Assembly (NCBI GenBank): GCA_973895155.1
Contig: OZ316895.1
Span: forward strand, 6,316,136 to 6,380,135
Reading direction: 5' to 3'
From: Marsupella aquatica
Lineage: Eukaryota; Plantae; Marchantiophyta
Length of the DNA stretch: 64,000 nt
The position numbers and the translations under genes were made by a program. The stretch's first letter is position 1. Each line of letters starts with the position of its first letter. Shown piece after piece: positions 2,555-50,891 of the stretch. The notes under the pieces were generated by a model. That model was given only the letters and a program-made list of their open reading frames with translations, had not been told where the DNA came from and did not search any database.

Positions 2555-3011
2555 TGTTGAGCATAGACGACGATCGCAACGGCAAGCCCATGAACCATCC
2601 AACGCACAATAGTCGACACAAGAGATACGTGGTTCACCTCCTTGAGGCTACGTCCACGGGAACACACAAGAGAGCTTTACTGAACTCTAAGCCCGTCGGC
2701 TATACCGAGTCTCCACTGTGTAAGCTCTCCCTATCTCTCAAGTGGCTCCATAACAATGAGCCTTGGTTCTACCTCTCCAAGCACACATGCCTCTTATGAT
2801 ATAGTGTGCAACTTAGTTGTACCTAACCACATAGTTGTACCTAATCACGTAGTTGTACCTAACCACATAGTTGTACCTAATCACGTAGTTGTACCTAACC
2901 ACATAGTTGTACCTAATCACGTAGTTGTACCTAACCACGTAGTTGTACCAACCCACGTTGTTGTATCAACCACGTCATACCTAACCTAGACGTAAGAGTA
3001 AATACCCAACA
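2555..3011 (-). repeat. 3' LTR of copia #1, with 18-bp tandem array in U3
   Basis: TGTTGAGC...CCCAACA, near-identical to 8666-9122. The adjacent ATCTTCCCCTTGA is the reverse complement of the PPT. Confidence 0.97.
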
Positions 3012-3202
3012 ATCTTCCCCTTGACTCTGGTCTAGGGGAGAGTAATACTGCCAATGTATATGATCCCTCAGCGGGAAGTTCTGGACAGAAACCAAACCGG
3101 TTTCCCTCTCTAACTAGAGCAAACCAGAACTAAGCCGTAGCCTAATACATAGGAATGAGGAAGAGCATATATCAGTAATTACAATGAATGTTTAAGAAAA
3201 CT

Positions 3203-6200
3203 CTACTTGTGATGCAATTGCAAAACCTGCAATACGTCACGGTGTCTAGAGAAACTCTCCAAAGGAATCACTTTGGTAAATGCGTCAGCCGGGTTGAGTT
3301 TACCATCAATCTTGACTAGCTCAAACAAATTATCAGACACAGTCTGCCTGATAAAATAGTACCTGACGTCAATGTGCTTCACTTTGCTGTCCATCACCTG
3401 GTTCACAGCAAGGTGGAGCGCACTTTGACTATCACAATGGAGCTTCACATTCCCCTGTGGCAATCCCATTTCAGTGATAAGTCTATCCAACCAAATCGCT
3501 TCCTTTGCTGCTTCCGCAGCTGCAACATACTCCGCTTCTGTAGTAGACTGAGCAATACACTTCTGCAAAGTAGACCTCCAACTTATGCATCCACCGCCAA
3601 GTGTGAACACGTATCCTGTTGTTGATCTCCTTCGGTCCAAATCTTGTCCATAGTCAGAATCTACATAGCCAATCAATGATCTAGCATTCTTTGCATTCGC
3701 ATCAAATAAAAGACCATGATCCACGGTACCCTTCAAGTACCTGATAATCCACTTCACTGCTTCCCAGTGTACCTTCCCTGGATTCGACATGTACCTGCTC
3801 ACCTTGCCCATAGCCATGGCAAGATCAGGTCTAGTGCAAGTCATCAAACACATGAGACTCCCCACTGCCTTGTCATATGGAACCTTTGACATCAACCCCT
3901 TCTCTGTGTCATCCGTAGGACAGAACGCTGATGATAACTTGAAGTGTGGAGCCAACGGGGTACTTACTGGCTTGCTATTCTCCATGTTGAACCTTGCAAT
4001 TACCTTCCTCGCATAACTGCTCTGCGTCAACCATAGCTTGCCAGCCTCCAAGTCCCTAGTGATCTTCATACCCAAAATCCTCTTAGCTGGCCCTAAGTCC
4101 TTCATCTTAAACTCTGCACTAAGCAGTGCCTTGAGCTTAACAATCTCAGACCTATCCTTGGCTGCAATTAGCATGTCATCCACATAAAGTACTAAAACAA
4201 TGAACCCAAAGACAACATTCTTCACCGGTTTCAAATACACACAAGGGTCAAATACACTTCTGTGAAAACCTTGTGACCGAATCCAATCGTCAAACCGCTT
4301 GTTCCACTGTCTTGGTGACTGCTTCAACCCATACAAGGATTTCAGCAATCTGCAAACAAATTCCGTCTGTCCTCTCTTCACAAAACCTAGCGGTTGTCTC
4401 ATGAAGATCACCTCTTCCAATGTGCCATAGAGGAAAGCTGTGACAACATCCATCTGATCTAGGAGCAGACCAAACATTACAACAAGTACACACAATAGTC
4501 GTATTGTAGAGTACTTAGCAACTGGTGAGAAGACCTCATTGTAATCCACACCTTTCTCTTGTGTGAATCCCTTTGCTACCAATCTAGCCTTGTAGACCTT
4601 CGATCCACCTCCTATGGAATTATCCTTCAGCTTGTAAATCCACTTGCTATCCACCACTTGCTGACCCTTAGGCAGCTTAACAAGCTCCCAAGTTTTGTTG
4701 TCCTTTAGTGACTGCATCTCCGTTTGCATTGCTGCAGTCCACTTCTGCTTCTCTTTTGAAGCACTTGCCTCATGAAATGAAGAAGGTTCTCCTTCTTCCA
4801 AAATTAACGCATCACCCTCATCATCAGCTGTAAAATCATCCTCTTGCAGTTGAGATGAATCAACCCACTGTCCATACCTTGATGGAGCGCGTACAGTGCG
4901 ACCAGATGTTCTTCTAGCCGATGACTCCGGTTGATCTGCGTGTGCTGGTACAATTTGAAGCTCAACAGCATCCACTTGTTGCTCACCAGCATCAACAAAC
5001 TCCTCTGGTTCCTCTGGCACAGGAACCAGCTCCATAATTGGAGCAACTCCTTCTCTCCGGTCATGCACCTCATAACCAATCTCCCCCTCAACGAGATCCG
5101 GGATAGGAGATTTTCCTTTGTCAGTACGGGAGACCTGAGTATTCTCCCCCTCCTTCAATAATCTGGATTCATTGAAGGAAACATCCCTACTGACAACGAG
5201 CTTACAGGCAATAGGATCCCATAGCCTATAGGCTTTCACACCACTCTGGTACCCAAGAAAAACACATTTCCTGGAGGTAGGATCCAACTTGGTCCTATTC
5301 TGCTTTGGTGTGAGAGCATATGCATCACTTCCAAAAATTACCAAGCCATGATAGTCTGCTTGCCGCTTATAGCGCATCTCAAACGGCGTTTTGAAATTGA
5401 TAGCACTAGAAGGAGAAAGATTTACCAAATAAGCTGCGGGATTGACAGCTTCTGCCCAAAATTCTTGTGGTAAACCTGATTGGCTCAACATACTCCGTGA
5501 CCGCTCCAACAGTGTCCGATTGAGCCTCTCAGCGACACCATTCTGCTGCGGAGTATAAACTGTGGTGAGATGGCGAGTTATCCCCTGTTCTGAACAGTAC
5601 TCTTCAAATTCCATTGAAGTGTACTCCCCGCCGTTGTCTGACCTCAGACTCTTCACCCTTGTATCCAAACACTTGATCGTGTTTCCAGTCTGATTCTCCA
5701 CCTGGGCCTTCCACTTCTTAAAAATGGACAAGACATTAGACTTATGCGTCATGAAATAAATCCACACAAATCTTGAGTAATCATCAATAAATGATACATA
5801 GTACAACTTTCCAGAGTGTGAGGGAGTCGGGGATGGACCCCACACGTCACTATGTATGTACTGAAGAACCGCTTTGGAACGATGAGTTCCAACACCAAAA
5901 GCACGACGACGCTGCTTTCCAAGAATGCAATGCTCACAAAACTCTAATTTACAAGATTGCAAATCAGAAATGAGTCCATTCTTCCGTAAGATAGCCAAAC
6001 CCTTCTCACTCATGTGGCCTAGCCGTGAATGCCACAGTTGAGTCATCTCCTCGTGAGACTTGGTTACATTGGCCTCTCCACATACAGTATTGCCTTGTAA
6101 CACATACAAATTCTTTTGTCTACTCCCCTTCAAAATCACTGTCTCTCCCGACCTGACTTGAAGTTCACCATCAATAACGCTCCATTGATGACCATTTGAA

Positions 6201-6476
6201 TCCAACACACCAAGTGAAATCAAATTCTTACGCATGCCAGGTACATACCTGACTCCGGACACTGTGCGCACAGCGCCATCAAACATTTGAATCTTCACAG
6301 ACCCAATTCCCTCAATTTGACAGGAGTGATCATTTCCCATCAGAACTGAACCGTTTGAAACAGAGTAAGAACTGAAAAAACTCACGAATGTAACAAATAT
6401 GAAAAGAGCAAGCACAATCAAGAATCCACACATCATCTGCTCTCCTAGATGACATGCACAGGGCATACCCCCGGCT
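3203..6476 (-). CDS. pol: Copia pol (protease, GAG-pre-integrase, rve integrase, RVT_2, RNase H); 1-nt frameshift in protease
   Basis: Motifs LWHSRLGH, CEHCILGK, HSDVWGP, SDNGGEY, QQNGVAER, KARLVAKGF, LYGLKQSPRQW, YVDDML, CDSQSA, KHIDVRY. The protease motif WILDCACSFHIC is in the gag frame; an A6 run at 6375-6380 (A5 in copy #2) shifts the frame. Confidence 0.95.
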
Positions 6477-7511
6477 TCATAAAACATACTCATCATTGAG
6501 TAAATCAGCTTCTCCATCAGCCCTAGCCACATTTGCCGATGAAGTTTCCGCTGCCTTTCCCTTACAGTCTCGCTTGAAGTGTCCAACTTGGTTGCACTTC
6601 CAACATGTCACTTGCCTCCTCTGAGGGGATTTACCCTTGGACTTAGATCTGGATTTAGATCTAAACTGGGTTCTACGGTCCCCAGTTGGTCGCTGCATAC
6701 TCCTCCCACGGTTAACATTGAGGGCAGCACCAGATGATGAAGGCTGTGACGTGATGTGCATCTTCTGCTGAAGATCATCACTAAGCAGAGAACTTACCAC
6801 GTCATTGTATGAAATGGTATCCCTATCACGATGCAACAACACTCGTGATAGGGACTGGTAAGATGGAGGCAATGAACTAAGAAGCTGCAGAGCCTTCGTC
6901 TCATCATTCAAAGTCTCCCCAAGGTTTTCCAAGTCAACGACCATGTCGTTGAAAGCATCCACATGGTCTTGCAACTTCGTACCAGATTCCTTCATCCTGA
7001 AACTCATCAGTTTGTAGGAAGTGTAGAGCCAGTTTGACAACTCCTTGCGGTGATACTTGCTCTGCAATTCCGCAAACAAGGACATGCAATCCTTATGTGC
7101 ACCTAACTGCTTGATGATGGGAGGCATGAGATAGAGTGTAACACACCACACTCCCTGCTCCTGCATGCGGTCCCATTGTTTCTCATCAACATCGTCTTCA
7201 CGAGGGCTCAGCAGTTGGCCCATCCCTGACGCATAAAGCACTCCCTTCACCTGCTTCTCCCATAGCAAGTAGTCAGAGCGCCCATCATACTTTGTCACTT
7301 CATACTTGGGTCCCCCAAGCTTGAAAGTCCCCATCTTCTTCTTTACCGTGAGCTCCGGTAGTAGTACTGCTTCCTCCACCACACGCCGCACCGGTGATGG
7401 TATCGGTGTCACGTGCTCTTCCTCCTGCTCCTCTCTCTACCCCTGAAACCTCCGCGGTGATCCTCGTGCTTCAAGTTCCACGTCTTCGAAAAACTCCTCC
7501 GAATCACTCAT
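6477..7511 (-). CDS. gag: Copia gag (Retrotran_gag_2 + CCHC zinc knuckle), one premature TAG near 7438
   Basis: ORF 6477-7412 with CWKCNQVGHFKRDC. Probable true start MSDSEEFF at 7511, by comparison with copy #2 (20208). Confidence 0.92.
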
Positions 7512-8651
7512 ATGAGAAAGTCACAAAAAATGTTGTTTTTCACAACTTCTCAAAAAACTCGAAACTCAACATCGCCGCGTAGCCCACAAAGCTAGGAGTC
7601 CAATACTGAAAACCAAAATCAAAATCGAAATTTGACGGAAAAGTTATTCAAATTTCGGTCGAGGTGGGTAAAACCTTGGGAAACTCCCCCGTTTTGACCA
7701 CCTCAGGGAATAACCGAAATACCAAGTACAACCCGTTGTCGGAATTGCGATGTGATTGGTGCGCTGCATTGCCAACTTCAATGGCTACGACCTCGCCGAA
7801 AAATAACCAAAAAAGTTACCGTTCGGCGGATGAAATCTTTGTCGGACGATCAAAAAATAGCTCTCTGGTTTTTTGGAATATTCTATGACCCTTGTACAGG
7901 CCCTGTGGGAATTTTGGAAGAACAATCGAGGGGCTGACATGTGTCCTCGAACCCCCAAAACCCCCTACCACCCTTCGTCGTCGAAATCTGGTCGCGCGCG
8001 CAGAAAATACACACGGCAGAATGTACCCCTCGACACCAAACGCAAGATATCTCACTCGGGTTTTGACAAAATCAAGATCCGATTTCAGATTTGGAAACTA
8101 GACTCCGAGGCGATGAAGATCGATATAAGAAGCACCCAAAACGAGGAAAGAACGAGAGAGAAAAAAATTGGTAAAGATGACAGATTTCTCTCAATTGCCA
8201 TAGCCAATTTCGAATCAGTTTTTCAAAGAGAAAAAAATGGTACCTTGTCAACAACGAATGTTGATCAATTGCACTTGGTGCCGTCACCAAGTCCAACAAG
8301 GTAATTGATTTTGCTTAGCCTTCCTCTTTGCATCAAAGAGCCAATCCCGGACTCAAAAACAATCGTCTTGCCTCAATCTCTCCGTTGAGTCAAAACACTT
8401 GATGCTTCTCCCTCCGAGTCGATTGCCAACTTTCTTCACAAAATCCAGAACGACGAAAACTTAGATCTCTCTGCACCACGAGCTCCGTTCAACGATTTCT
8501 TCACACCGTTAGAAAGCTCTTGCCCTGATCTATCCGTTGAGCCCATAAACTCCAAGTTCCATGCGATGGAACTCTGGAAAATCCACCAACACTCAACGCT
8601 GGAAAAACCGTCATGAAATCCCGTCACGAACACACGTCACCTCCCAAGCAT

Positions 8652-8663
8652 GCTCTGATACCA
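8652..8663 (-). promoter_or_regulatory. Primer binding site (tRNA-iMet) of copia #1
   Basis: Reverse complement TGGTATCAGAGC lies 2 nt inside the 5' LTR. Confidence 0.95.
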
Positions 8664-8665
8664 AT

Positions 8666-9122
8666 TGTTGAGCATAGACGACGATCGCAACGGCAAGCCC
8701 ATGAACCATCCAACGCACAATAGTCGACACAAGAGATACGTGGTTCACCTCCTTGAGGCTACGTCCACGGGAACACACAAGAGAGCTTTACTGAACTCTA
8801 AGCCCGTCGGCTATACCGAGTCTCCACAGTGTAAGCTCTCCCTATCTCTCAAGTGGCTCCATAACAATGAGCCTTGGTTCTACCTCTCCAAGCACACATG
8901 CCTCTTATGATATAGTGTGCAACTTAGTTGTACCTAACCACATAGTTGTACCTAATCACGTAGTTGTACCTAACCACATAGTTGTACCTAATCACGTAGT
9001 TGTACCTAACCACGTAGTTGTACCTAATCACGTAGTTGTACCTAACCACGTAGTTGTACCAACCCACGTTGTTGTACCAACCACGTCATACCTAACCTAG
9101 ACGTAAGAGTAAATACCCAACA
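8666..9122 (-). repeat. 5' LTR of copia #1
   Basis: 457 bp, TG...CA, followed by TSD CATGC. Confidence 0.97.
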
Positions 9123-9489
9123 CATGCAACAACATAAAACATCAAACTCAGTTTGCTCAACATGCAATGACTTAATCAGAGCATGAAAAGAACTATCCTA
9201 GTGCTTGGGGACACCATGCAACATTGAACACAAATGTCCACCTTTTTGTGTGGCATCGTACAATTTTTTTGAGTGAGTGAGTGAGTGGCAGGGTAGAACA
9301 AGCTTATTGAAGGGCTGCACTTGGCCGGTTTAAAAAAATAAAACTTCTGCTCTTTTTTGTGTATATTGCGCTTGGAGGAGAAAAAAAAAAAAAAATCAGT
9401 GTGCGGTAGTGGTTAAAACTTTCACATGTGTACTGTGCATCATCACTGAAATACTATTTGTACAAAGAGTGAACATGCATGGTAGTCAA

Positions 9490-10135: not shown

Positions 10136-11793
10136 GCCCTGTTGACAGGAAGGCAATAGGATAGAAGTTAGCATACTAGTCAACCCATAAATGAAATTTA
10201 ACATCAGAGTTTGAAGGAACATCACAAGCAATTTGACAAAAATGCGGTACAGGTGATGACCGTATCGAGGGAATGTAGGCCATCATACTGAAGTAATGAA
10301 CTGACATGTCCATCTTAGTGTTTTGGTCTACATTCTTGAATTCAGTTGTACAACTATGAAAAAATTCAAACTTGAAACTGTGGATTTGTAGAGAAACAAT
10401 TTTACCACTTGCACTGCAATTGGGAATCTGGACTTCACCATAGTTCCTAGTGTATACCTCATGCACTGTCCTCAAGGACTACAGCATGAAGTATCCATTA
10501 ATAATTAGGGTGTCTCAAAATTTCATAGATGCAAATAATGGTCATTGGTCATTAATAAATGATCATAACTTTTCACTAGCCTTTAGAGTGATTTATTGTC
10601 ATGACATATCATCAATATTTTATTGGAAAAAGTTATTGATCATGAATTTAGTAGGGCATCTCAATGCTTCAAATGTGACGGGCCTTAACTTAGTAGTTAA
10701 GGTTACCCACATAAAAAGTTGTGGACTACCAATTTCATGATACATAGTTTTTGCCTTTAAGGATAGTGATTTTATGCCAAGACCATAAGTCACTGAGGAG
10801 GCTAGTGAAAAAACAAAGCAAAAATTTTACATAATCATGTGAAAAAACTGTCACCCTTTGTTTATGGGCAAAAGTCATCATCCACAACTTTGAAGACAAA
10901 AACTTTTACAACCTTGTGAAAAAGCTATTATCGTTTATTTATTTATGGCCAAAAGCTCTCATCAGCAACCTTTGAAGCTTTGAAACGGCCTTGGCCTAGT
11001 AATCCATAACTTTTTCTGTGAGTAAGTAACTCAAGGTACATCATATAGGTACATCTGGTTAGAGACCCCATATTGATTGCACACTCGATAATATACCGAG
11101 AGGTCTCTTCGCGTTGACAGAACCAACAGCGGTCAATTACAATTATGCAGTCATTCTCTCTTTCAGTTTTCTGGCAGTTTGATATATTATCTTTCAGTCC
11201 AACGATAATTAAGCATAACTATTGAGCAGCTCCGCGTGACGTCTGTGTGTACCGTAGTCTCACGTTCTAATTAATAAGTCGACTCTTCATTATCCACATT
11301 GCCAGAAGCAAACCACCCACCTTCGGCGAGCGACGCCGACCAACTATAACCACCAGTGGTTTACAATCATGGTCGTCAATTTCTTGGTATTCCATACTCC
11401 GATACTCAAACGAAAATATGAGTGTTGAAGACCTCGTGCGTCTGGCAATTACCGTACATTGCTAATCTGAAGCACACCATCTTCATGGTGGAAATCCTTT
11501 GATAATATCTGATAACTTGTGCTATTGATGTGTCATGTCCTGCTGGTTTGTGGTGGACGGTGAGCAGGCAGTTGAGAAAAGATTCACCGTCTTGTGGTGT
11601 CCCTATAGCCCTCCCTCCTATCATGATGTACACCCTCAAAATCATTAAAAAGCACGACAGGAGCATGATAGTACCAACAGGTAAGTCTATCGCATGGCAG
11701 GGTAATCTCTGACGATTTTTTAGATTAGACAGTGTGGACAACGGTACCTTGTGTTGTGGAGAAGATGCTACCACTGTTCCGTGGAGCAGCTTG

Positions 11794-12146
11794 GCTCTGA
11801 ATAAATTGTAAGCTTCTCCGAGGCTCTGCTGCATAGTTTACCAGTACAAATCCATGCATTTGGCATTGGTAAACACTATACTATCCTAGCATTATAATAT
11901 CCAAACACGGCTGTGAATAAATTGTAGGCTTCTCCAAGGCTCTGTTGCATAGTTTACCAGTACAATTCCATCCTGTTGGCATGCATTTGGCATTGGTAAA
12001 CACTATAATATCCTAGTATACTAGCAATATAATATCCAAACACTGCTCTGAATAAATTGTAAGCTTCTCCAACGCTCTGTTGCACAGTTTACCAGTACAA
12101 TTCCATCCCATAGGTAAACACTGTAATATCCTAGCATTATAATATC
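11794..12146. repeat. Three tandem copies of a ~110-135-bp unit
   Basis: GAATAAATTGTA.GCTTCTCC...AGTTTACCAGTACAA...GGTAAACACT.TA.TATCCTAG..TATAATATC repeated three times. Confidence 0.85.
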
Positions 12147-13826: not shown

Positions 13827-15918
13827 CGTTAGCCCAATCACAATGGGCTAAGGAACTTCACCTACGGATGTCTAACTAGAAAGTTATGGGCCTAGCAAGT
13901 TAGCTTTGTATCTAGTTGATCAGGTTGGAGTCCAGGTAGAGGACCAAAAATAGGGGACTAAAGTTTTTCCGAGGGTGGCAGGTCTCCAAAAGCATGAGGG
14001 GAGTGGCGTCTTCCAGTGGGCCAGGGGGAAGCCCAAGTCGTGAAAAGCGAGATGGTGGCACTATTAAGGAGAAATGACAAACAAAAATGTTGATATCCCC
14101 TCAACACAAAGTCCGTTGGAGAAATTCTTGGGTGCCTTGAAAGGCTCTCAAGGAAGACTACATCCTCTTGATATCAGTTGGGTTTGGGGGTACTTTTGGT
14201 CCTCATGCTTTGCAAGGGCTATCTTGCCCACTGGTTGATCCTATTGAAATAGCAATCAAGTCACATTTAGTTTTCCATGGGAGCTTGCCTTGTAGAGGCC
14301 ATGCAGAGTAGGCACGGGTGTTAAGGTCCAAGTGCATCTTTCCCTTGGACTCTCAGTTGAGTTAGACCTGTGAAGTTAGTTGCTAGAGTTGGGGCCAAAC
14401 TAGTCCCGGCGTTTGGGACAAGTTGTGGGACAAGCTAGCTATTTGGACCATGGGCATGTTGTGGAGGTAGGGCAGTAATCTGGTGATGGATGGAAAGTGG
14501 GGAAGTTTGGGTAGCACCCGATAGAAGGGCTGTTATGGACAAAGAGCGGGTGCCGACCTTAGCTTCAGCTTAAGGAAAGGTCACACGGGCCTGGATGGCT
14601 TTATCCATTGACCTACTTACTAATGACTATTGAGATTGAGTCAAGAAATTGTCTTGGGATCCAAGATTAAGGCAGGTTACTTACCGATGGGCTTGGTTGC
14701 TTGTGCAAATAGTAGGGGCTGTTGAGCGACGGTCTTGCTGAAGAGAAAGTGTGGCTTTGTGAGGGAGTTGTTGCTAGCAGTGATAGAGGCATAGAGTTGC
14801 TCGCTCATGTTGTTTTGTGGAGGCGTTCGGGCACCAAGGGTACTTAGGCCAGAGTATTGGGTTTGGTGAGGACGCTGGGTGGCGAGGTCCATGAGTGTTT
14901 CTCATTAATAATTAAAGGGTGATGATGTGTAAAACATGTATCCACAATATAATTTTAATTGTCAATATCACACACCATGACTACATGACAGAGATGGACC
15001 ACTTTAAAGTACATATCTATCACATTAGTTAAAATGGTTCATATTTATAATAACCACATAGCTGATCTCATATATACAAAACTACTCAGTTTGCGCATTG
15101 TATGGGGAAGGCTTAATTTGGCCTGGTCCGTTGATCTACTTGTTGAAATGAAGGGATGAGAGGAGGAATCCATGCCATACTCACTCTATTCATTAAAAGT
15201 GTATTTTGTTCACTTTTAGGCCCCTAAATGTTCAATTTTTGATCTCTAATTGTACACTTCTTAACACTAAATTGTACATTACAATACAATACTCTACACC
15301 TAAATGGTCAATTATAAACTTGAGGGTGCAAAAAATGTCTTTACTAGAAGAGTCTAGTCCTAGTTCATTTACAAAGGATGAACTATTGAGCATAGATGAT
15401 GATCGCAACGACAAGCCCATGAACCATCCAACGCACAATAGTCGACATAGAGAGATACGTGGTTCACCTCCACATGAGGTTACGTCCACGGGAACACACA
15501 AGAGCTTTACTGCACTCTAGGCCGACCGGCCATACCAAGCATCCACAGCACAAGCTCTCCCTATCTCTCAACTGGCTCCGTAACAATGAGCCCGAGTTCC
15601 CACTCACCAAGCAAACACCACTTGGTTATAGAGTGTCCACAACATGACTAACCTAACCAAGTCTACGACTAAGATTAGCCTTAACTACGGTACAGTCGTA
15701 ACTCTAGACCTAAGAGTAAATCCTAACAATCTCCCCCTTGACTCTGGTCTAGGGGAGGGTAAAGACTGCTACCAATATGATTGCTTAGCGGGAAGTTCTG
15801 GAAAGAAAAACCAAACCGGTTTTTCCCTCTTATACGAGAGTAGACCAGAACTAAGCCGTAGCCTATACAAGGAATGAGCAAGAGCATATCTCAGTATCTA
15901 CACAAATGTTAAATAACC

Positions 15919-18900
15919 CTACTTGTGAGGCAATTGCAAAACCTGCAACGCATCACGGTGTCTAGAAAAACTCTCCAAAGGAATCACTTTGGTAAAAGCG
16001 TCAGCCGGGTTGAGTTTACCATCAATCTTGACTAGCTCAAACATATTATCAGACACAGCTTGCCTGATAAAATGATACCTGACGTCCATATGCTTCACTC
16101 TGTTGTCCATCACCTGGTTCACAGCAAGGTAAAGCGCACTCTGACTATCACAATGGAGCTTCACATTCCCCTGTGGCAATCCCATCTCAGTGATCAGTCT
16201 ATCTAACCAAATTGCTTCCTTTGCTGCTTCTGCTGCTGCAACATACTCCGCTTCTGTAGTAGATTGAGCAATACACTTCTGCAAGGTAGACCTCCAACTT
16301 ATGCATCCACCTCCCAGTGTGAACACATAACCTGTTGTTGACCTCCTCCGATCCAGATCCTGTGCATAGTCAGCATCTACATAGCCCATCAATGATCTAG
16401 CATTATCAGCATGTGCATCAAACAGTAGACCATGATCCATGGTACCCTTCAAATACCGAATAATCCACTTCACTGCTTCCCAATGTACCTTCCCTGGATT
16501 TGACATGTACCTGCTCACCTTGCCCATAGCCATGGCAAGATCAGGTCTAGTACAAGTCATCAAATACATGAGACTCCCCACTGCCTTGTCATACAAAACC
16601 TTTGACATCAACCCCTTCTCTGTGTCATCCGTAGGACACAAAGCTGATGACAACTTGAAGTGTGGAGCCAACGGGGTACTTACTGGCTTGCTATCCCCCA
16701 TGTTGAACCTTGTAATTACCTTCCTCACATAACTACTCTGCGTCAACCATAGCTTACCAGCCTTCAAGTCCCTAGTGATCTCCATACCCAAAATTCTCTT
16801 AGCTGGCCCTAAGTCCTTCATCTTAAACTTTGCACTAAGCAGTGCCTTGAGCTTAACAATCTCAGACCTATCCTTGGCCGCAATAAGCATGTCATCCACA
16901 TAAAGTACTAAAACAATGAACCCAAAAACAACATTCTTTACCGGTTTAAGATACACACATGGGTCAAACACACTCCTGTGAAAGCCTTGTGCACGGATCC
17001 AATCATCAAACCGCTTATTCCATTATCTTGGTGACTGCTTCAACCCGTACAAGGATCTCAGCAATCTGCAAACCAAATCCTCTTGCCCTTTCTTCACAAA
17101 ACCTAGCGGTTGTCTCATGAAGATCACCTCTTCCAAGGTGCCATAGAAGAAAGTTGTGACAACATCCATCTGATCTAGCAGCAGACCAAACGTAACAACA
17201 AGCACACACAATAGCCGTATTGTTGAGTACTTAGCAATTGGTGAGAAAATCTCATTGTAATCCACACCTTTTTCCTGTGTGAATCCCTTGGCTACCAACC
17301 TAGCCTTGTAGACCTTTGATCCACCTTCCATGGACTGATCCTTCAGCTTGTATATTCACTTGCTATCCACCACTTGCTGTCCCTCAGGCAGCTTGACAAG
17401 CTCCCAAGTTTTGTTGTCCTTTAGTGACTGCATCTCCGTTTGCATTGCTGCAGTCCACTCCTGCTTCTCCTTTGAAGCACTTGCTTCATGAAATGAAGAA
17501 GGTTCCCCTTCTTCCAAGATCAACGCATCACCCTCATCATCAGTAACAAAGTCCTCATCTTGGAACTGAGATGAATCAACACACTGTCCATACCTTGGTG
17601 GAGCGCGTACAGTGCGACCAAATGTTCTTCTAGCCGATGACTCCGGTTGATCTGCGTGTGCTGGTACAATTTGAAGCTCAACAGCATCCACTTGCTGCTC
17701 ACCAGCATCAACAAACTCCTCTAGTTCCTCTGGCACAGGAACCAACTCCATAATTGGAGCAACTCTTTCTCTCCGGTCATGCACCTCATGACCAATCTCC
17801 CCCTCAACGAGATCCGGGATAGGAGATTTTCCTTTGTCAGTACGGGAGACCTGAGTATTCTTCCCCTCCTTCAATAATCTGGATTCATTGAAGGAAATAT
17901 CTCTACTGACAACGAGCTTACAGGCAATAGGATCCCATAGCCTATAGGCTTTCACACCACTCTGGTACCCAAGAAAAACACATTTCTTGGAGGTAGGATC
18001 CAACTTGGTTCTATTCTGCTTCGGTGTGAGAGCATATGTATCACTTCCAAAAACTACCAAGCCATAATAGTCTGCTTGTCGCTTATAGCGCATCTCAAAC
18101 GGCGTTTTGAATTGATAGCACTAGAAGGAGAAAGATTTACCAAATAAGCTGCGGTATTCACAGCTTTTGCCCAAAATTTAAGTGGTAAACCTGATTGGCT
18201 CAACATACTCCGTGACCGCTCCAATAGTGTCCGATTGAGCCTCTCAATGACACTATTCTGCTGTGAAGTATAAACTATGGTGAGATGGTGAGTTATCCCC
18301 TGTTCTGAAGTGTACTCCCCGCCGTTGTCTGACCTCAAACTCTTCACCCTTGTATCCAAACACTTGACTGTGTTTTCAGTCTGATTTTCCACCTGAGCCT
18401 TTCATTTTTTAAAAATGGATAAGACATAAGACTTATGCGTCATGAAATAAATCCACACAAATCTTGAGTAATCATTAATAAATGATACATAGTATAACTT
18501 TCCAGAATATGAGGGAGTCGGGGATGGATCCCACACGTCACTATGTATGTACTCAAGAACCGCTTTGGAACGATAAGTTCCAACACCGAAAGCACGACGA
18601 AGCTACTTTCCAAGAATGCAATGGTCACAGAACTCTAATTTACAAGATTGCAAATCAGAAATGAGTCCATTCTTCCGTAAGATAGCCAAATCCTTCTCAC
18701 TCATGTGACCTAACCGTGAATGCCATAGTTGAGTCATCTCCTCGTGAGACTTGGTTACATTGGCCTCTCCACATACAGTATTGCCCTGTAACACATACAA
18801 ATTCTTGTGTTTACTCCCCTTCAAAATCATTGTCTCTCCCGACCTGACTTGAAGTTCACCATCAATAACACTCCATTGATGACCATTTGAATCCAACACA

Positions 18901-19170
18901 CCAAGTGAAATCAAATTCTTACGCATGCCAAGTACATATATACCTGACTCCGGACACTGTGCGCACAGCGCCATCAATCATTTGAATCTTCATAGACCCA
19001 ATTCCCTCAATTTGATAGGAGTGATCATTTCCCATCAGAACTGAACCGTTTGAAACAGAGTAAGAACTGAAAAACTCACAAATAAAACAAATATGAAAAG
19101 AGCAAGCACAATCAAGAATTCACACATCATCTGCTACCCTAGATGACGTGCACAGGGCATACCCCCGACT
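15919..19170 (-). pseudogene. pol: Copia pol of element #2 (multiple stops/frameshifts, small deletion in integrase)
   Basis: Fragment ORFs 18603-18977, 18054-18392, 17356-18093, 17023-17331 and 15919-16971 are collinear with pol of #1. Confidence 0.93.
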
Positions 19171-20208
19171 TCATAAAACATACTCATCATTGAGTAAATC
19201 AGCTTCTCCATCAACCCTAGCCACATTTGCCGATGAAGATTCCGTTGCCTTTTCCTTACAGTTTTGCTTGAAGTGTCCAACTTGGTTGCACTTCCAACAT
19301 GTCACTTGCCTCCTCTGAGGGGATTTACCCCTGGACTTAGATCTGGCTTTAGATCTAAATTGGGTTCTACGATCCCCAGTTGGTCGCTGCATACTCCTCC
19401 CACGATTAACATTGAAGGCAGCACCAGATGATGAAGGTTGTGACGTGATGTGCATCTTTTGCTGAAAATCATCACTAAGCAGAGAACTTACCACGTCATT
19501 GTATGAAATGGTATCCCTATCACGATGCAACAACACTCGTGATAGGGATTGGTAAGATGGAGGCAATGAACTGAGAAGCTGCAGAGCCTTTGTCTCATCA
19601 TTCAAAGTCTTCCCAAGATTTTCCAAGTCAACGACCATGTCGTTGAAAGTATCCACATGGTCTTGTAACTTTGTACCGGATCCTTTCATCCTAAAACTCA
19701 TCAGTTTGTAGGAAGTGTAGAGCCTGTTCGACAACTCCTTGCGGTGATACTTGCTCTGCAATTCTGCAAACAAGGACATGCAATCCTTATGTGCAAACTA
19801 CTTGATGATGGGAGGCATGAGATAGAGTGTAACACACCATACTCCCTGCTCCTGCATGCGGTCCCATTGTTTCTCATCAACATCGTCTTCACGAGGGCTC
19901 AATAGTTGGCCCATCCCTGATGCATAGAGCACTCCCTTCACCTGCTTCTCCCATAGTAAGTAGTCAGAGCGTACATCATACTTTGTCACTTCATACTTGG
20001 GTCCCCCAAGCTTGAAAGTCCCCATCTTCTTCTTTGGCACTATTGTGAGCTCCGGTAGTAGTACTGCTTCCTCCACCATACGCCGCACCGGTGATGGTAC
20101 CGGTGTCACGTGCTCTTCCTCCTGCTCCTCTCTCTGGCCCTCAAACCGCGGCGGTGATCCTCGTGCTTCAAGTTCCACATCTTTGAAAAACTCCTCTGAA
20201 TCACTCAT
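19171..20208 (-). pseudogene. gag: Copia gag of element #2, frameshift near 19797
   Basis: ORFs 19798-20208 (MSDSEEFF...) and 19171-19779 (CWKCNQVGHFKQNC). Confidence 0.92.
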
Positions 20209-22959
20209 ATGAGAAAATCACAAAAATGTTGTTTTTCACACCTTTTCAAAAACTTGAAACTCAACACTGCCGCGTAGCCCACAAAGCTAGGAGTCCAATA
20301 CTGAAAACCGAAATCAAAATCAAAATTTGACGAAAACGTTATTCAAATTTTGGTCGGGGTGGGTAAAACCTTGGGAAACTCCCCCGTTTTGACCACCTCA
20401 AGGAATAACCGAAATACCAAGTACAACTCGTCGTCGGAATCGCAATGTGATCGGTGCGCCGCGTTGCCAACTTCAATGGCTACAACCTCGCCGAAAAAGA
20501 ATCAAAAAAGTTACCGTTCGACGGACGGAAACTTTGTCGGATGGCCGAAAAACAACTCTCTATTTTTTGGGAATATTCCCGCACTGTCCGACGGGTCTCA
20601 CAGGGGGCCGTTCCCCTTGTCTAAGCGGTTAAAATGGAGGGTCACAGGGCCCGGGATGCGGCACAACCAATGAGGAGGAGGAGAAAATAAATAAATTAAA
20701 AAAAGCACTTTAAAGGGGTCTTAAAGCCCCTGGAAAAGGCGCACATATTCGCGGCCACGCGCGCATATTCGCGACTAGAATCGTGTATAAACTGCCAAAA
20801 AACGTGAAAAAACGGGTTTAAAGAGGTCAAAATGCGCGTATTTTTATGTATTCGGGCCGTATAAGGGCGTTGTGGGCCGTATTTTCACCAGAAAAAGCAC
20901 ATTTTCATGCTTAGAGGGGTGTGGGAGGCCGGGGCGCGCGCTGGGGCATATGGCAAAGTAGGTTTGTCGGGATTTGAAGGTATACAGGCCGTATAGGGGC
21001 AAAACAATGCCCTAAACTAACCTTAAAATATGCCAAAAAATGACACAAAGGCCGTGTTACAAACCTCAGGTGCCTCCGCTTCGGTTTCCAATGAGAAAAG
21101 TGATGACCGCTGACATGAAATTTTGCCGAATTGCACCGGCACGTCTGCAGCTCCACCAGAGAAGAGAAAACCTCCGCCGTGTCTTACTCTCTCCGCGTCA
21201 AGGGCCAATCCCAGACTCAAAACGATTGCCTCACCACGATCTCTCCGTTGAGCCTCAACAATTCGCGTTTCTTCCTCCGAGTCAAGCGTCACGACAAGTA
21301 ATCCGGTTCAGGGAAAAACAAGCACCATAGCTTGTCAAAAAACCAGAACTCAACTTTCACTCGTCACGACGCACTCGCTCCACAAACGCCAGCAAACCAG
21401 GTACCAAAACGACCAGCTCGCTTCAACCTTCAACTTGAGCTATAACATGCGATGCCTCCCGCACCGCATAGCTCACACCGTTGAAAAAACAATCTCTAGT
21501 CTCTCTCCCAAAATCCCGTCGAACAGGAATAAACCCTGAACAACACAAACTTCAATTCCTCCGCACCACGGATACCGATCAGCAAGTTCTAACCACCGTT
21601 AGAAAGCCCTCTCACTAACCTATTTGCTCAGCCACACACGTTCAAGTTTCATGCGACGAAACCCCGAATGCAACACCAACAATGAACGCTGGAAAACCGT
21701 CACAAAAAAACCTTGTCACCTCCCAGGCATGCTCTGATACCATTTGTTGAGCATAGACGACGATCGCAACGGCAAGCCCATGAACCATCCAACGCACAAT
21801 AGTCGACACAGAGAGATACGTGGTTCACCTCCACATGAGGCTACGTCCACGGGAACACACAAGAGCTTTACTGCACTCTAGGCCGACCGGCCATACCAAG
21901 CATCCACAGCACAAGCTCTCCCTATCTCTCAACTGGCTCCGTAACAATGAGCCTGAGTTCCCACTCACCAAGCAAACACCGCTTGGTTATAGAGTGTCCA
22001 CAACATGACTAACCTAACCAAGTCTATGACTAAGGTTAGCCTTAACTACGGTACAATTGTAACTCTAGACCTAAGAGTAAATCCTAACATGAACATGGTG
22101 GTATATGTAATGGCCATGACATATGTTTCTTGCCAAAATGTACACTTTTTGAAAGCCTTTTTGTACACTTCATGTGTCTCACATGTTCATAAATCAAATA
22201 TTAATTCACTTTTAATGGATAGGCGCCGCAAGTGATGCACTAGTACACAATAGGGAACCAGAATACAAACTCACCCCCACTTCTTCTTTCTTACTTAGAT
22301 GCCCAGAAACAAGGAGAATTTTGAAGTCATTTTTCTGGATTGGCAAACCTGACGAGGATCTTGTCTAAGGGAGAAACCCTAACAAGTTATGGTTTAACTA
22401 GAAAGGGCGACTTCTGAGGTTGACAATGGACATGTGTTGGCATTGAACTGAAAATAATGAGAATAAAATTTCTCCATGCTTTCTTCCTCTTCAATGTTGC
22501 ATACCAAATTGTTCTATGCCTTTTAAAAACACTTTGTATGGAAATATCAGAGACAAGCCATAGAGAAAACACTTTGTAAAAACACTTTGTAAAAACACTT
22601 TGTACAAACCATGGAGAACTACAACCTTTGTCTAGAGAAATTCCATCTAGACCACATGCGGCATTTGGCTTTGATGGAATGCACTCAGCAGGGCATTCCA
22701 TGTTCAATCCTAAAATACTTATAGACTACAGTATTCTGCCTATGGGATATTTGATCAGGAATGGTGATTTGACAAAAATCAAAGCATAGGTGACATATTG
22801 GGAGACAAGATACCTTAAGCAGGAGACCCAATAAATAGGAGAAATCAAGGAAGAAACCCCAGAAGACCAGAGAGCCAGGAGTCCCCAACAAGAGTCCCCC
22901 ACAACCAAAAAGTACTTACCCATTTATACCTCGCACGGTCACTCATGTTAAATTGACAG

Positions 22960-40881: not shown

Positions 40882-41039
40882 TGGTATTTTTATCCCTGAT
40901 TTTGGCTTAGCTTATCTCCTTCACCTCCCTGGCAGATGCCTAAGCTGATGGACCCCTCCCCACTTAATGTCGTTTGCAATGTCCTCCCCAATTTGGACCT
41001 TGTCCCTTCGGCAATGGTCGATCCTCCCCAGGCCTTCGA

Positions 41040-43935: not shown

Positions 43936-45217
43936 ACAATAATAGCCGCCAGACGTGCGATCCACTGCCCCTCCCTCCCCTTCCTGGACTAGCCTAACCC
44001 TCCTCGTTTGCCCCACGTTCTTTTTCCCCCTCCCTCCGCCACCGGTTTCTTTCTCCAATAATAGATGAGAGCCAAATTTTGTAGAATAGATGTCATAGGG
44101 AAGGAGCCCAAAGAGGCATGGTCGTGTGGTAGCCCAGTTAAGTTGAAATGATAGGTCTAGAGTTTAAATATTGTGACTAATTTTTCCCTTAAATATGTGA
44201 GCGTTGATTTTGGAGGAAGGAGAACCTTTGTTTCATTTCAAGAGACAAGTGCTTCAAAGGACAAGCAAGAGTGGATTGTAGCAATGCAAACAGACTGAGA
44301 TGTAATCATTGAAGAACAACAAAACTTGGAAGCTTATCAAACTACTTGAGGGACAACAAATGGATTTACAAAGATTTGATCCACAAGAGGAGGATGGAAG
44401 GTCTACAAGGCTAGGTTGGTAGCCAAGGGATTCACATAGGCAAAATGTGTGGATTGCAATGAGGTTCTCTCACCAAATGCTAAATAAATCTTTACAATTA
44501 TACAGCTATTGTGTGTACTGTCTTGTTGTTATGTTTGATGTGCTGCTAGATTAGATGAATGTTACAGTCACAAATTTTCTCTATGGCACCTTGGAAGATG
44601 TGATTTTTATGAGATAGTCATTAGGTTTTGTGAAAAAAGAATATGAGGCATTGGTTTGCATATTGCTAAAATCCTTGTATGGGTTGAAGCAATGACCAAG
44701 ATAATGGAATAAGCGGTTAGACAATTGGATCCATCCACATGGTTTTCACAAAAAAAGTGTTTGACTCTTGTGTGTAGTTGAAACCGATGAAGAATGTTGT
44801 TTTTGGGTTCATTGTTTTAGTACTTTATGTGGATGACATGCTTATTGCGGCCAAAGATAGGTGTGAGATTGTTAAGCTCAAGACATTACTTAGTGCAAAG
44901 TTTAAGATGAAGATTTTAGGGTCAACAAGGAGGATTTTGCGTATGGAGATCACTAGGGACTTGGAGGCCCGCTTGGAGGCTAGTAAGCTATGGTTGACAC
45001 AAAGCAGTTAAGCAAGAAAGGTTCAATATGGGGAATAACAATCCAATAAATACCCCTTTGGTTGCATACTCCAGATTGTCATCAGGTTTTTGTCCCACAA
45101 ATTTGATAGAGAAAGGGCTAATGTCAAAGGTTGCTTATAATAAGTCAGTGAGGAGACTAATGTATGTTAGATATTTACTCTTACATCTAGGGTTACGACA
45201 TGTAGTTACCATAGTTA

Positions 45218-48200
45218 TGTTAGATATTGCTCTAGTCTTGTGACTCTTGTGCTAACCACAATTAGGCTAACTCGGGTTAGGACCTAGCTAAGGTTAGCGG
45301 TAGTGCTGTTGTGCATATAGACAGGGCTAATACCAGACCCTGGTGGAACTTAGGCTCATTGTTACGGAGCTAGTTGAGAGATAGGGAGAGCTTGTGCTGT
45401 GGATGCTTGGTATGGCCGGTCGGCCTAGAGTGCAGTAAAGCTCTTGTGTGTTCCCGTGGACGTAGCCTCATGTGGAGGTGAACCACGTATCTCTCTGTGT
45501 CGACTATTGTGCGTTGGATGGTTCATGGGCTTGCCGTTGCGAATGTCGTCTATGCTCAACAAGTGGTATCAGAGCATGCCTGGGAGGTGACGAGGTTTTT
45601 TTGTGACAGGTGTTTTCCAACGTTCATTGTCGATGGTACATTCGGAGTTTCGTCGCATGAAACTCGAATGTGTGTGGCTGTGCGGATAGGTTAGTGAAAG
45701 GGCTTTCTAACGGTGGTTAGAACCTGCTGATCGGTATCCGTGGTGCGAAGTAATCAAAGTTTGCGTCGTTCAGGTTTTATTCATGTTCGACGGTATTTTT
45801 GGGAGAGTGACCAGGGTTTACGTTTTTCAACGGTGTGAGTTGTGCGGTGCGGGAGGGATCGCACATTATAGCTTAAGTTGAAGGTTGAAGCGAGCTGGTC
45901 ATTTCGATAGCTGCATTGCTGCCGAGTTGTTACCGAGTGCGACGTGACGAGTGACGGAGGCGTTCAGGTTTTTTCACAAGCTATGGAGCTTGTTCTCATC
46001 TGAACCGGTTTTTTCTTTGTAACGTCCGACTCGGTGGAAGAGACGTGAAGTGCTACGGCTCAACGGTTTGATCGCGGTGAGGCGGTTGTTTTGAGCCCGG
46101 GATTGGCACTTGATGCGGAGTGAAGGTGACGTGATGGAATTTTTTTATTCTGCTGGAGCAGTAGATTGCGCCGGTGCAATTTGGCAACATTTCCCGTCGG
46201 CGGCGTTCACTTTCCTCACTTAAAACAGCGGCATTCAAGGTGTGTAAACGACTTTTTTGTTTTAAAGTCAAATCTTGGCTTAGGTTAGGGCCACTTTTGG
46301 TGTGTATACACACCCTCCCAGCCCTTGGTCCCCCATCGTTTCCCCTTGTACGCCCGACCCCCCCGCACCTTGTTTTCCCCTCATCCTTCAGCCGCGGCGA
46401 CGAGCTGCGCAACACCGGCCGGCGCTTTTCGCGCCCTCATACGCCCTCCGCCATACCACGCCAGTCGCTGCCTCGGCCCCGCCCTGACGTCGTATGGCCG
46501 GCCTTGCATGTGTACGCGGCTGCGTATGCATCCGCTCTATTACACCGCCCTAGTAACCCCAAGGCGTACTCCCGGCCTTACGCCCTTCGGGCCCGCCCGT
46601 TCATACTGTATTTTTTTATTAGGGGCTTAAGCACCCCCTTTAGGGCCATTATTTTGCCTCTTTTTCCTCCTTATTGGTTTCCTTTTGTGCCGGGACCTGC
46701 CGCCCTCCGTTTAAACCGCTTGGACAGGGGGAACGGCCCCCTGTGAGACCTGCTGTACTGTGCGGGAATATTCCCAAAAAACAGAGAGCTTCTGGACACA
46801 TCATCAAGCAACTGGATGATTATGCGGATTGCGCGTCATTGTTCAAGGCTCTTAGAGAGAAATACTACCGGGAAGATGTGTCAGACCGGCTGTACAAGAA
46901 GTCTCTCTTGATGAGACTTAGGCTCAAGGAAGGGAGCAAGATGCAGGATCACCTGGATGAATTTGATAGTCTTGCGGTGGATCTGTCAAACCTGGGAAAA
47001 GGAGTTGAAGATGAGGATAAGACCTTGCTTCTGCTAAGCTCCTTACCGCCGTCTTATTAGGGCTTGAAATAGGTTCTCTTGTATAGAGATTTGAAGTCCA
47101 TTTCGTATAATGAGATGGTGAGCTCATTACTGTCTGATGATGCTCAGAAGAAGCTGGGTCAATCACAGACAGCATCTTCTTCTGGCATTGCGCTGAATGT
47201 GAACAGGGGAAGAGTAGTGCAGCGCACGAATGGACAGAACAGGTTTAGATCTACAACACGGGGGAGATCTAAATCCAGAGGGAAATCGCAAGAGAGGAAG
47301 CCTCTTGCATGTTGGAATTGTGGCAAGCCTGGTCACATGAAAAGGGATTGTCGAGTAAAGGTCCCTATTGCCTCTGCTAATGCGGCATCGAGCTCGCATG
47401 AGGTAGATTTACTCGATGATGATGACATATTGTGATGTCAAGGTTATGCTCTCAACGTAATGTCAAATCCAGGTAAAGATGACTGGATTCTAGATAGTGC
47501 ATGTACTTTTCACATTTGCTCTAGAAGAGATTGTTTCAGTTCTACACGGTTTCCAACGGGTCAGTGTTGATGGGAAATGGAATCCATGTCAAGTTGTTGG
47601 ACTTGGATCTGTAAGATTTCAGATGTTTGATGGTGCTGTGAGAACATTGAGGAATGTGAGACATATTCCTGGCATGATGAAAAATCTCATTTCACTTGGA
47701 GTTTTAGAAGCAAATAGCCACCAGTGGAGCTCTGCTAATGGTGTCCTTCAGGTTTCAACTGGTACTAAAGTTGTATTGAAGGGAAAGAGACATAGCAATC
47801 TATATATTTTGGAGGGCAGTGTAGTTTATGATGAAGCCAATGTAACCTTATCTCATGAGGAGACGGCCCGGCTGTGGCACTTCCGTTTGGGCCACATGAG
47901 TGAAAAAGGTTTGGTTATTCTTTAGAAGAAAGGATTACTTTCTAATTTGCAATCTTGTAAGTTGGAATTTTGTGAGCACTGTGTGCTAGGGAAGCAGCAC
48001 AGGAAACCCTTCGGAGTTGGAACTCACACTAGCAAGGAGGTACTTGAGTATGTACATAGTGATGTGTGGGGCCCAGCCCCTACTCCCTCATATTCTGGAC
48101 GGTTATACTATGTCACGTTCATAGACGATTACTCAAGGTATGTGTGGATATACTTTCTACACAATAAGTCTGATGTTTTGGCCACTTTTAAGGAGTGGAA

Positions 48201-50041
48201 AGCCCAAGTTGAGAATCAGACTGGTAATAAGGTGAGATATCTTCAATCGGATAACGGCGGTGAATACAGTTCCGCGGAATTTGGAACATATTGTAAGGAG
48301 CAGGGGATTACCCGCCATCTCACAACAAGTTATACTCCTCAGCAGAATGGTGTTTCTGAGAGACTCAACCGAACACTATTGGACCACTCGAGGAGTATGT
48401 TGAGTCAATCATGCTTACCACATGAGTTTTGGGCTGAAGTTTTTCAAGGATGGTGTATGATCCTTGTGTGTATACGAAATTAGTCAAGAATGATGTATTT
48501 GGTTTCATCATTCTGGTGATTTATGTGGATGACATGCTGATTGTGGCTAAAGATCAATCTGAGGTTGACAGTCTCAAGGCAAAATTGAGTGCTGAATTCA
48601 GGATGAAGGATCTTGGTAAGGCCAAGAGAATCTTAGGGATGGAGATTTTTAGGAACTCTGAGACTGGACAGTTGTGCTTGAGTCAAGGCCAGTATGCGAG
48701 GAAAGTACTTGCACGATTCAACATGGAAAACTGTAAGCCAGTGAGTATTCCTTTAGCTTCACATTTCAAGTTATCATTGGCTTTCTCTCCTACGGAGACT
48801 GTGGAGAAAGGTCTGATGGCTAAGATTCCTTATGAGAAGGCAGTAGGCAGTCTGATGTATTTGATGACTTGTACTAGGCCTGACTTGGCCCTAGCGATGG
48901 GCAAGGTTAGCAGATTCATGTCAAATCCAGGGAAGGTACACTGGGAAGCTGTGAAATGGATTCTCAGGTATGTGAAGGGAACACAGGACTATGGATTACT
49001 ATTTGATAACAGATCAGATAGAACGTTGGTTGGCTATGTAGATTCTGACTATGGAGGCTGTCTGGATACAAGGAGGTCTACAACTGAGTTTGTATACACT
49101 CTTGGAGGAGGATGTATCAGTTGGAAATCTACCTTGCAGAAGTGCATATCTTAGTCTACTACAGAAGTAGAGTATGTTGCAGCAGCAGAAGCAGCAAAGG
49201 AAGCAATTTGGTTGGATAAGTTGATCGCAGAGATGGGTTTAGAGCATGGAAAAATGACTCTAAACTGTGATAGTCAGAGTGCTCTTCACTTGGCTGCTAA
49301 CCAGGTGATGGATAGCAGGGTGAAGCACATTGATATCAGGTACCATTTTATCAGGCAAGCAGTGTTTGATAAAAATTTTGAGCTAGTCAAGATTGATGGA
49401 AAGCTCAATCCCGCTGATGCCTTTACCAAAGTGATTCATTTGGAGAGCTTCTCAAGACACCGTGCTACTTTGCAGGTTTTGCAGTTGTAGTGCAAGTAGA
49501 GTTATTTAGCAATGTGTGACTATTTGTATATGGATTACTCATTCCTGTTAGGCTATGACTTAGTTCTAGTTAACCCTTAGTTAACCCTTGTGGTTTTTAG
49601 GGGGAGACCTGGTTTGGTGATTGTCTAGAACTTCCCGCTGAGGATTCCATATGGTAGCATTTAGTCCAGTCCCCAAGATAAGAGTCAAGGGGGAGTTTGT
49701 TAGATATTGCTCTAGTCTTGTGACTCTTGTGCTAACCACAGTTAGGCTAACTTGGGTTAGGACCTAGCTAAGGTTAGCGGTAGTGCTGTTGTGCATATAG
49801 CCAGGGCTGATGCCAGACCCAGGTGGAACTTAGGCTCATTGTTACAGAGCTAGTTGAGAGATAGGGAGAGCTTGTGCTGTGGATGCTTGGTATGGCCGGT
49901 CGGCCTAGAGTGCAGTAAAGCTCTTGTGTGTTCCCGTGGACGTAGCCTCATGTGGAGGTGAACCACGTATCTCTCTGTGTCGACTATTGTGCGTTGGATG
50001 GTTCATGGGCTTGCCGTTGCGAATGTCGTCTATGCTCAACA
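45218..50041 (+). mobile_element. Internally deleted Ty1/copia element #3
   Basis: 344-bp LTRs (45218-45561, 49698-50041; about 7 differences), TSD AGTTA, PBS at 45564-45575, PPT AAGGGGGAG. Deletions remove the gag 5' part (~46790) and INT C-term/RT N-term (~48440). Confidence 0.96.
46790..49490 (+). pseudogene. gag-pol: Gag-pol remnants of copia #3 (divergent from #1/#2)
   Basis: CWNCGKPGHMKRDC, WILDSACTFHIC, LWHFRLGH, SDVWGP, SDNGGEY, YVDDML, CDSQSA; several stops and frameshifts. Confidence 0.92.
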
Positions 50042-50891
50042 AGTTAGGCTAATCATGGTTGGAGACATGATTAGGTTACTAAGTTGCACACTATATATCC
50101 TAATCGGTGCTTGCTAGGATAAGTGGAACTAAGGCTCATTGTTACAGAGCCACTTGAGAGATAATGAGAGCTTACATTGTGGAGACTTGGTATGATCGAT
50201 GGGCTTAGAGTTCAGTAAAGCTCTTTTGTGTGTTCTCGTGAATGTAGCCTCGAGGAGGTGAACCACTTATCTCTTGTGTAGACTACTTGAAGTGTTGGAT
50301 GTGTCATGGGCTTACTGTTGCGATTGTTGTCTATGCTCAACAATGTATTTGATAACTTGTACTAGAGCTGATCTTGCCATGGTCGGGGCCATGGCTATCA
50401 TGGGTAAGGTGAGTAGGTACATGTCAAATCAAGGGAAGGTACAATGGGAAGCAGTGAAGTGGATTATCAGGTATTTGAAGGGTATAGTGGATCATGGTTT
50501 TTTGTTTGATGCAAACGTAAATAATGCTAGATCATTGATTGACTATGTAGATTTTTACTATGGACAAGCTCTGGACCAGAGGTATGGAGATCAACAATAG
50601 GGTCGGGAATAGGGTATGTGTCCACACTTGGCAATGGATGCATAAGTTAGAGGTCTACATTGCAAAAATTTATAGCTTCAAGAGCACTCTACTACAAAAG
50701 CATTTGAAGTATGTCAAAGCAGAGGAACTTGTAACAAAGAAAACAATTTGGTTGGATAAAATTATTACTACTTAGATAAGATTTTTACATGAAAATGTGA
50801 AGCTCCACTGTGATAGTCAGAGTGTCTGAGCTTCATCCCCGACTTCATCTTGTTGTGAACTAGGTGATGGACAGTACTTAGAGTGAAGCGC

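Follow-up and report, generated by a model that had tools for sequence, protein, structure and literature searches.

Three Ty1/copia elements in the 64,000-nucleotide stretch of Marsupella aquatica DNA analysed here (the window) carry an in-frame TGA between gag and pol. This raises the question of whether the stop is a working part of the elements or a trace of decay and, in the former case, how Pol would be produced beyond it. Plant copia elements are usually taken as single-ORF elements in which Gag and Pol are balanced through splicing. A land-plant clade with a fixed UGA at this place would represent a second solution to the Gag/Pol balance, and its intact members would be liable to be scored as dead, or split into two genes, by annotation tools.

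Elements of the window

Copy 1 is a young element, its LTR pair having 3 differences per 457 bp and identical 5-mers flanking both sides (Table 1). Its primer binding site would match the initiator tRNA-Met. Both LTRs possess an 18-nt tandem array (2757-3025, 8868-9136). The gag ORF has a C-terminus reading L-L-N-D-E-Y-V-L-stop, with a further stop present in its N-terminal part, just upstream of 7436. The long pol ORF (3203-6607) is open for more than 1000 codons and overlaps gag by 130 nt; it lies in a frame other than that of gag because of a frameshift approximately 100 nt past the stop, and ends approximately 190 nt short of the 3' LTR. Pfam matches in pol are PF22936, PF13976, PF00665, PF25597, and PF07727. 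The domain order is GAG-PR-INT-RT, as expected for Ty1/copia, with no separate Pfam match to RNase H being found.

Table 1. Features of the three copia copies, with positions in the window.
Feature	Position	Strand	Basis or remarks
Copy 1, young Ty1/copia element	2555..9122	-	LTRs, TG...CA ends, 5-bp target duplication
Copy 1 LTRs, 457 bp each	5' LTR 8666-9122; 3' LTR 2555-3011	-	flank the internal region
Copy 1 primer binding site	8652..8663	-	adjoins 5' LTR
Copy 1 gag ORF	6477..7436	-	capsid domain and zinc knuckle (6564-6605); PF14223, PF00098
Copy 1 candidate splice donor, GTAAGT	6792..6797	-	318 nt before stop; lead only
Conserved TGA, copy 1	6477..6479	-	sequence
Copy 1 16-codon linker past stop	6429..6476	-	G-Y-A-L at 6459-6470; equal length in both families
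Copy 1 protease catalytic motif W-I-L-D-C-A-C-S	6405..6428	-	in gag frame
Copy 1 frameshift break, T run inside protease	6375..6380	-	unlike copy 2 and many family contigs
Copy 1 candidate splice acceptor, T-rich tract and CAG	6372..6380	-	behind catalytic motif; lead only
Copy 1 remaining pol, open: second half of protease, integrase, reverse transcriptase	3203..6373	-	Pfam
Copy 2, older, decayed, coding family of copy 1	15384..22089	-	LTRs, 5-bp target duplication
Conserved TGA, copy 2	19171..19173	-	sequence
Copy 3, divergent family, internally deleted, several breaks	45213..50044	+	LTRs 97.7% identical
Conserved TGA, copy 3	47433..47435	+	sequence; no variant reaches 3% in X1, X2, X3
Copy 3 16-codon linker and W-I-L-D-S-A-C-T	47436..47507	+	G-Y-A-L at 47442-47453

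Copy 2 has 11 differences in 343 bp between its LTRs and is 92% identical to copy 1 across 4.9 kb. The preliminary description had given it as the same as copy 1 around the stop. This is correct for the stop itself, but copy 2 has Thr in place of the Met of G-Y-A-L-C-M, and an extra TGA (19120-19122) replaces the W of W-I-L-D, with frameshifts farther on. Copy 2 is also a mosaic: copy 3 shares 98% identity with part of its LTR and 85% with its leader, but only approximately 70% with its coding region, which is 92% identical to copy 1 (15384-22089 compared against 45213-46226 and 2982-7883), which suggests template switching between the families.

Copy 3 is approximately 70% identical to the copy 1 family in the gag-protease region. 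It lacks Pol residues 388-780 (tblastn) and also has frameshifts and stops. A frameshift approximately 100 nt past the conserved stop is present in both copies 1 and 3, so that the protease, previously described as lying in the gag frame, does so for its catalytic first half and leaves that frame in these two copies for the remainder. None of the three copies is intact, a point missed when they were first put forward as evidence for the stop; since all are broken, signal and decay cannot be told apart from the window alone.

The frameshift of copy 1 was also considered as a programmed +1 frameshift and rejected, as the catalytic motif shares its frame with gag and the break is unlike copy 2 and the family contigs; in addition, three Pol relatives are in frame from the catalytic motif onward. 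Contigs differing from copy 1 at the T run make up 37%, 36%, and 13% of aligned depth in X1, X2, and X3, respectively, these shares being taken as lower bounds because contigs ending inside the run show no gap. A frameshifted subfamily at this run is considered improbable.

Other LTR-like pieces (13483-13826, 27545-27701, 50042-50342, 51904-52173) and pol fragments of related elements (44102-45163, 50322-50875, 51431-51694) are found in the window, none with a gag-pol junction, as are unrelated tandem arrays (11763-12158, 22965-23309, 30069-31215, 41005-41463, 43280-43464). The region 37015-40728 (minus strand) contains a series of stop-separated ORFs resembling a cassette of mobile or viral type that has decayed. 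One of these ORFs matches N6_N4_Mtase (PF01555, E-value 2.8e-6, just above the curated cut-off) and shows a weak CcrM match, while its neighbours have no Pfam match. N4-cytosine methylases have been reported from liverworts.

The junction of gag and protease

The in-frame TGA and its flanking peptides were confirmed in all three copies, where the stop ends gag 28 residues past the zinc knuckle. The conservation of G-Y-A-L noted earlier also holds, the motif occupying codons +3 to +6 in each copy, with the W position of the protease at codon +17. Over the 99 nt that follow the stop, identity between copies 1 and 3 is only 60% and synonymous sites are saturated, yet stop, frame, and spacing are retained; by this comparison, their sharing is more than chance. 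The W-I-L-D motif type of copy 1 is also found in single-ORF relatives.

Gag ends in Y-(A/V)-L before the stop and Y-A-L recurs past it. The second Y-A-L lies 10 residues before the protease W, where several single-ORF relatives have D-A-L, and it would appear that a boundary motif has been duplicated around the stop. Behind the protease active site, the position of the Trp in an R-x-W-F motif (6380-6390, minus strand) is Phe or Tyr in the clade (the window copy together with P0045, P0049, P0057, and P0334) and Trp in 7 relatives of greater distance.

Coding constraint past the stop

Comparison of copies 1 and 3 over codons 1-33 past the stop, in the gag frame, gives a pS of 0.83 and a pN of 0.30, with differences by codon position of 9/10/21. 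Identical residues number 17 of 33, against a mean of 10 under random placement (reached in 0 of 5000 trials). Codons 1-6 taken by themselves give 1/1/5 by codon position, a figure based on just 7 differences. The other two frames show the reverse pattern and contain stops. Variants of the copy 3 family past the stop are synonymous or single amino-acid changes, with zero new stops. To judge from these substitutions, Pol past the stop is under purifying selection. As the post-stop codons are constrained in the gag frame, ribosomes would have to read through the stop or else enter this frame no more than two codons from it.

Conservation of the stop among relatives

At the DNA level, contigs of public runs were aligned on both families, depth in these alignments not being equivalent to copy number. 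The complete variant table of the copy 3 family, at a 3% threshold, has zero rows at 47433-47435 in runs X1, X2, and X3. Run X9 lacks coverage of this stop, and run X7 covers the copy 1 stop by one contig. For the copy 1 family, no stop variant is present among 40 of 66 rows listed (2% threshold); a minor variant could be hidden there, to go by the alignments, while a majority variant could not.

At the protein level, 28 of 42 Gag matches reach the knuckle, and 23 of these 28 end in Leu 26-34 residues past it, with a conserved end of D-L-L-(D/N)-D-(D/E)-Y-(A/V)-L. Among the other five knuckle-bearing clusters, one has Pro as its last residue at this same place, while the end comes sooner in three and farther on in one; none of the 28 is fused to Pol. 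The only Gag match running into protease is P0042, which is 32% identical and lies outside the 28. A search for longer proteins (500-2000 residues) gave a single match of 28% identity, which is weak evidence. No fused close relative was found among proteins of 156-2000 residues or in a profile search. The latter returned 150 matches: of the 32 with at least 42% identity, 5 end at this place, 0 are fused, 2 are otherwise arranged, and 25 lack the knuckle, while 43 of the 118 more distant matches are fused. Ten distant Gags from this search end 24-36 residues past the knuckle, several with acidic-hydrophobic tails. The locus L022:484-1270 is a gag-only element with terminal repeats (26% identity) which ends D-D-I-S-L, its TGA being surrounded by the same 9 bases as that of copy 2. 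These cases, as read from their ends, may reflect chance or a wider group.

A Gag tree was built from 54 rows, these being the 3 window copies, 29 knuckle-bearing proteins, and 22 of 79 metagenome loci, hand-picked as less decayed. In it, 31 of the 54 rows fall in one branch with a support of 100/100, comprising 27 stop-ending, 4 other, and 0 fused rows. The metagenome loci are distant, being 21-38% identical. With knuckle and protease in frame, 56 could be scored (23 were unscorable), and of these 50 are open from knuckle to protease and 6 have stops, at scattered positions. Searches for close relatives found none in viral contigs and only weak matches in prokaryote genomes, and a protein atlas search gave nothing beyond the family name.

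The closest named relatives are from liverworts, namely Calypogeia fissa (Gag, 61%), Marchantia polymorpha (42-51%), and Riccia fluitans (Pol, 60%). In a third family, known from protein calls alone, Gag and Pol are annotated as distinct proteins, each on contigs with the same pair of sizes (2628 and 4177), a hint that it shares the gag/pol split. The identity of the stop is known from DNA in two families, the other relatives being represented by protein ends. The preliminary description had named a sense codon in most young copies as the mark of shared decay, and neither the DNA contigs nor the Gag ends show such a majority. On the sequence evidence, the stop is a real, inherited, and built-in feature under selection, not decay.

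Alternative explanations for Pol production

That the stop is an old lesion, or that these are gag-only non-autonomous elements borrowing Pol from a single-ORF helper, would suit the broken state of the three window copies. Plant gag-only elements do exist, to go by the TR-GAG account, and the gag-only locus L022 has a Gag terminus resembling that of the window elements. The reading is nevertheless largely refuted and very improbable, given the purifying selection on Pol past the stop, the open pol of copy 1, the lack of a fused close relative in the protein and profile searches, and the open knuckle-protease region of most distant single-ORF loci. Minority splicing, which would either remove the stop and join gag to pol (compare the Ogre intron) or provide a separate pol mRNA (compare foamy viruses), is unlikely, even though the sequence offers some leads for it. 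Each of the three copies has a strong candidate donor in homologous position, 315-318 nt ahead of the stop (in copy 3 it reads GTGAGC, at 47118), T[TG]TTTCAG occurs once per element 104-105 nt past the stop in each copy, and an AG at +37 is likewise homologous in the three. Protease-centred introns are usual in Arabidopsis copia, and one contig of X3, a run of unspecified type, skips 47423-47542, although this is weak (a depth of 8.4, and 26 letters on its shorter side). However, the phases of the good donor and the good acceptor do not match, and their joining would give a short Gag without the knuckle, resembling the spliced Gag of Arabidopsis copia, instead of Pol. Use of the +104 acceptor would remove the catalytic motif, and that at +37 would place G-Y-A-L within the intron, despite its being kept through synonymous change. 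AGs ahead of G-Y-A-L vary in place and phase between the families, and two Pol relatives read F-F-T-S-Y at a place where an acceptor would call for Phe and then a codon beginning with AG. The donor-like sites may themselves be a by-product of conserved Val-Ser codons. For an intron of the EVD type, homologous candidate sites are found in the three copies, the acceptor not being evident in the third family. Of the two mechanisms originally proposed, readthrough fits best on present evidence and simple splice-out of the stop fits poorly, because the codons directly past the stop are constrained and no acceptor is shared before G-Y-A-L.

A fresh start of Pol past the stop, by a non-AUG codon, reinitiation, or a weak internal promoter, with Pol packaged apart from Gag, is quite unlikely. 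Near-cognate codons are present in the linkers of both families, but they differ in position and all lie past G-Y-A-L, which would leave that motif untranslated, and neither the exact frame nor the 16-codon spacing would need to be conserved. For the close Pol relative P0045, the called start lies 8 residues ahead of the W. A weak junction promoter is described for Tca2, and the same source supplies the argument that a free Pol would need another route into the particle (PMC2194720). A conserved AUG restart was tried and rejected: copies 1 and 3 each have a private linker ATG, at differing codons, another letter accounting in X1 for 99.8% of aligned depth at 6454 in copy 1 and 99% in copy 3, and no AUG between the stop and the catalytic Asp is conserved across families. 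The Met of G-Y-A-L-C-M, at first taken as shared, is this private codon of copy 1. A ribosome hop that leaves Y-(V/A)-L ahead of the stop and lands on Y-A-L beyond it, so that 7 codons are skipped, is hardly credible. The motif does occur on both sides, and skipping one unit would give the junction length of single-ORF relatives; against this, the take-off and landing Leu codons mismatch in both families and there is no conserved hairpin. We know of no ribosome hop of this kind in the eukaryotic cytoplasm. Selenocysteine, RNA editing, and a changed code were set aside, as land plants are not known to have a Sec system and plant RNA editing is organellar.

Proposed readthrough of the stop

Stop readthrough is considered the best explanation for Pol production, with a probability of roughly 0.65 on the sequence comparisons made here, and it needs nothing beyond what is seen. 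According to this proposal, the UGA would terminate most ribosomes, releasing Gag with an acidic-Y-(A/V)-L end, while a few ribosomes would insert an amino acid at the UGA to give a Gag-Pol fusion, the protease of which would free itself near the second Y-A-L. The excess of Gag would be set by the level of UGA readthrough, where other plant copia obtain theirs by splicing.

The stop contexts are TGA-AGC, TGA-AGT, and TGA-TGT, the +4 base being A or T and not C. None of the window stops matches readthrough types I-III (UAG-CARYYA; UGA-CGG/CUA with a stem-loop; UAG-G with a pseudoknot), with neither CARYYA nor CGG/CUA found next to the stop. Folding of the 3' context, suggested as a check in the preliminary description, gave no conserved hairpin for copies 1-3. 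Post-stop hairpins of copies 1 and 2 are unremarkable, having z values of -1.3 and -2.7 (10 of 160 element windows are stronger than -2.7) and are not found in copy 3, and the covariation term of the alignment fold is positive. As there is no known leaky hexamer or local conserved hairpin, readthrough would require either basal leakiness of the UGA or a remote element, the latter as proposed for Tca2.

A broader and more tentative proposal is that a copia clade of leafy and complex-thalloid liverworts (named matches in Calypogeia and Marchantia) swapped splicing-based Gag/Pol control for readthrough of UGA, directed by a signal that does not belong to types I-III. The stop would have come to lie between two Gag/protease boundary motifs, giving terminated Gag the same kind of end as processed Gag, and a third form of Gag, lacking the knuckle, may come from an intron spanning the stop.

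Comparison with known systems

A literature search found no description of gag-stop-pol in liverworts, mosses, or Tork-like elements, although REXdb lists beyond those covered may hold some. Marchantia is not mentioned in the main text of PMC6317226, and the portions of PMC7466625 at hand contain nothing on stops. The preliminary description had given the layout as known from few elements, such as Tca2. In the plant copia lineage SIRE, 22 elements (10%) are tabulated with one stop separating GAG from PROT, and several gypsy groups are listed likewise (PMC6317226). Like the window elements, SIRE elements are copia of plants in which gag and pol form two ORFs; unlike them, they have a mixed layout (spacer, overlap, single ORF, or stop), mostly with an extra 3' ORF (PMC6317226), whereas stop, frame, and spacing are fixed in both window families seen as DNA.

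In the fission yeasts, Tj1, Tcry1, and Tosmo1-3 are described as keeping an in-frame TGA between gag and protease (bioRxiv 10.1101/2022.12.06.519325). These are Ty3/gypsy elements with a conserved leaky GAA-TGA-CT, the context in the window elements being L-TGA-(A/T)GY. According to PMC2194720, Tca2 (pCal) of Candida albicans is a Ty1/copia element whose gag and pol share a frame that a single UGA interrupts; its junction gave no readthrough in a yeast reporter, and bypass was not explained by local sequence. The window elements resemble it in being copia with an in-frame gag-UGA-pol and a bypass lacking a local sequence explanation. They differ in that Tca2 is fungal and carries a purine spacer of 8 nt together with a predicted pseudoknot, neither of which is seen in the window elements, while in the latter the stop marks a whole clade and has the repeated Y-A-L motif around it. 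As with Tca2 and Tj1, one in-frame gag/protease stop is kept among relatives. The UGA bypass of Tca2 is still unsolved, local sequence having failed to direct readthrough, and a diverse clade represented in Marchantia, a model liverwort, would provide both sequence variety and a test system for the signal search.

Tork elements have a single ORF in 69% of cases (PMC6317226), and in Arabidopsis copia of the EVD type the protease is spliced out to give a short Gag and thereby Gag excess (PMC5580714). The window elements are like those of the Tork/Tnt1 type in domain order and primer-site type, and their closest Pol relatives bear Tnt1-94-type names. In contrast to Tork and EVD, their Gag has its own genomic stop, and the single GAG-PROT-INT-RT-RH ORF that prevails in Tork is not the arrangement of the clade. 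The clade is Tork-related through its Tnt1 database names and is not filed as Tork here. The layout itself was known before; in these elements the gag-UGA-pol junction marks a liverwort-associated, Tork-related copia clade.
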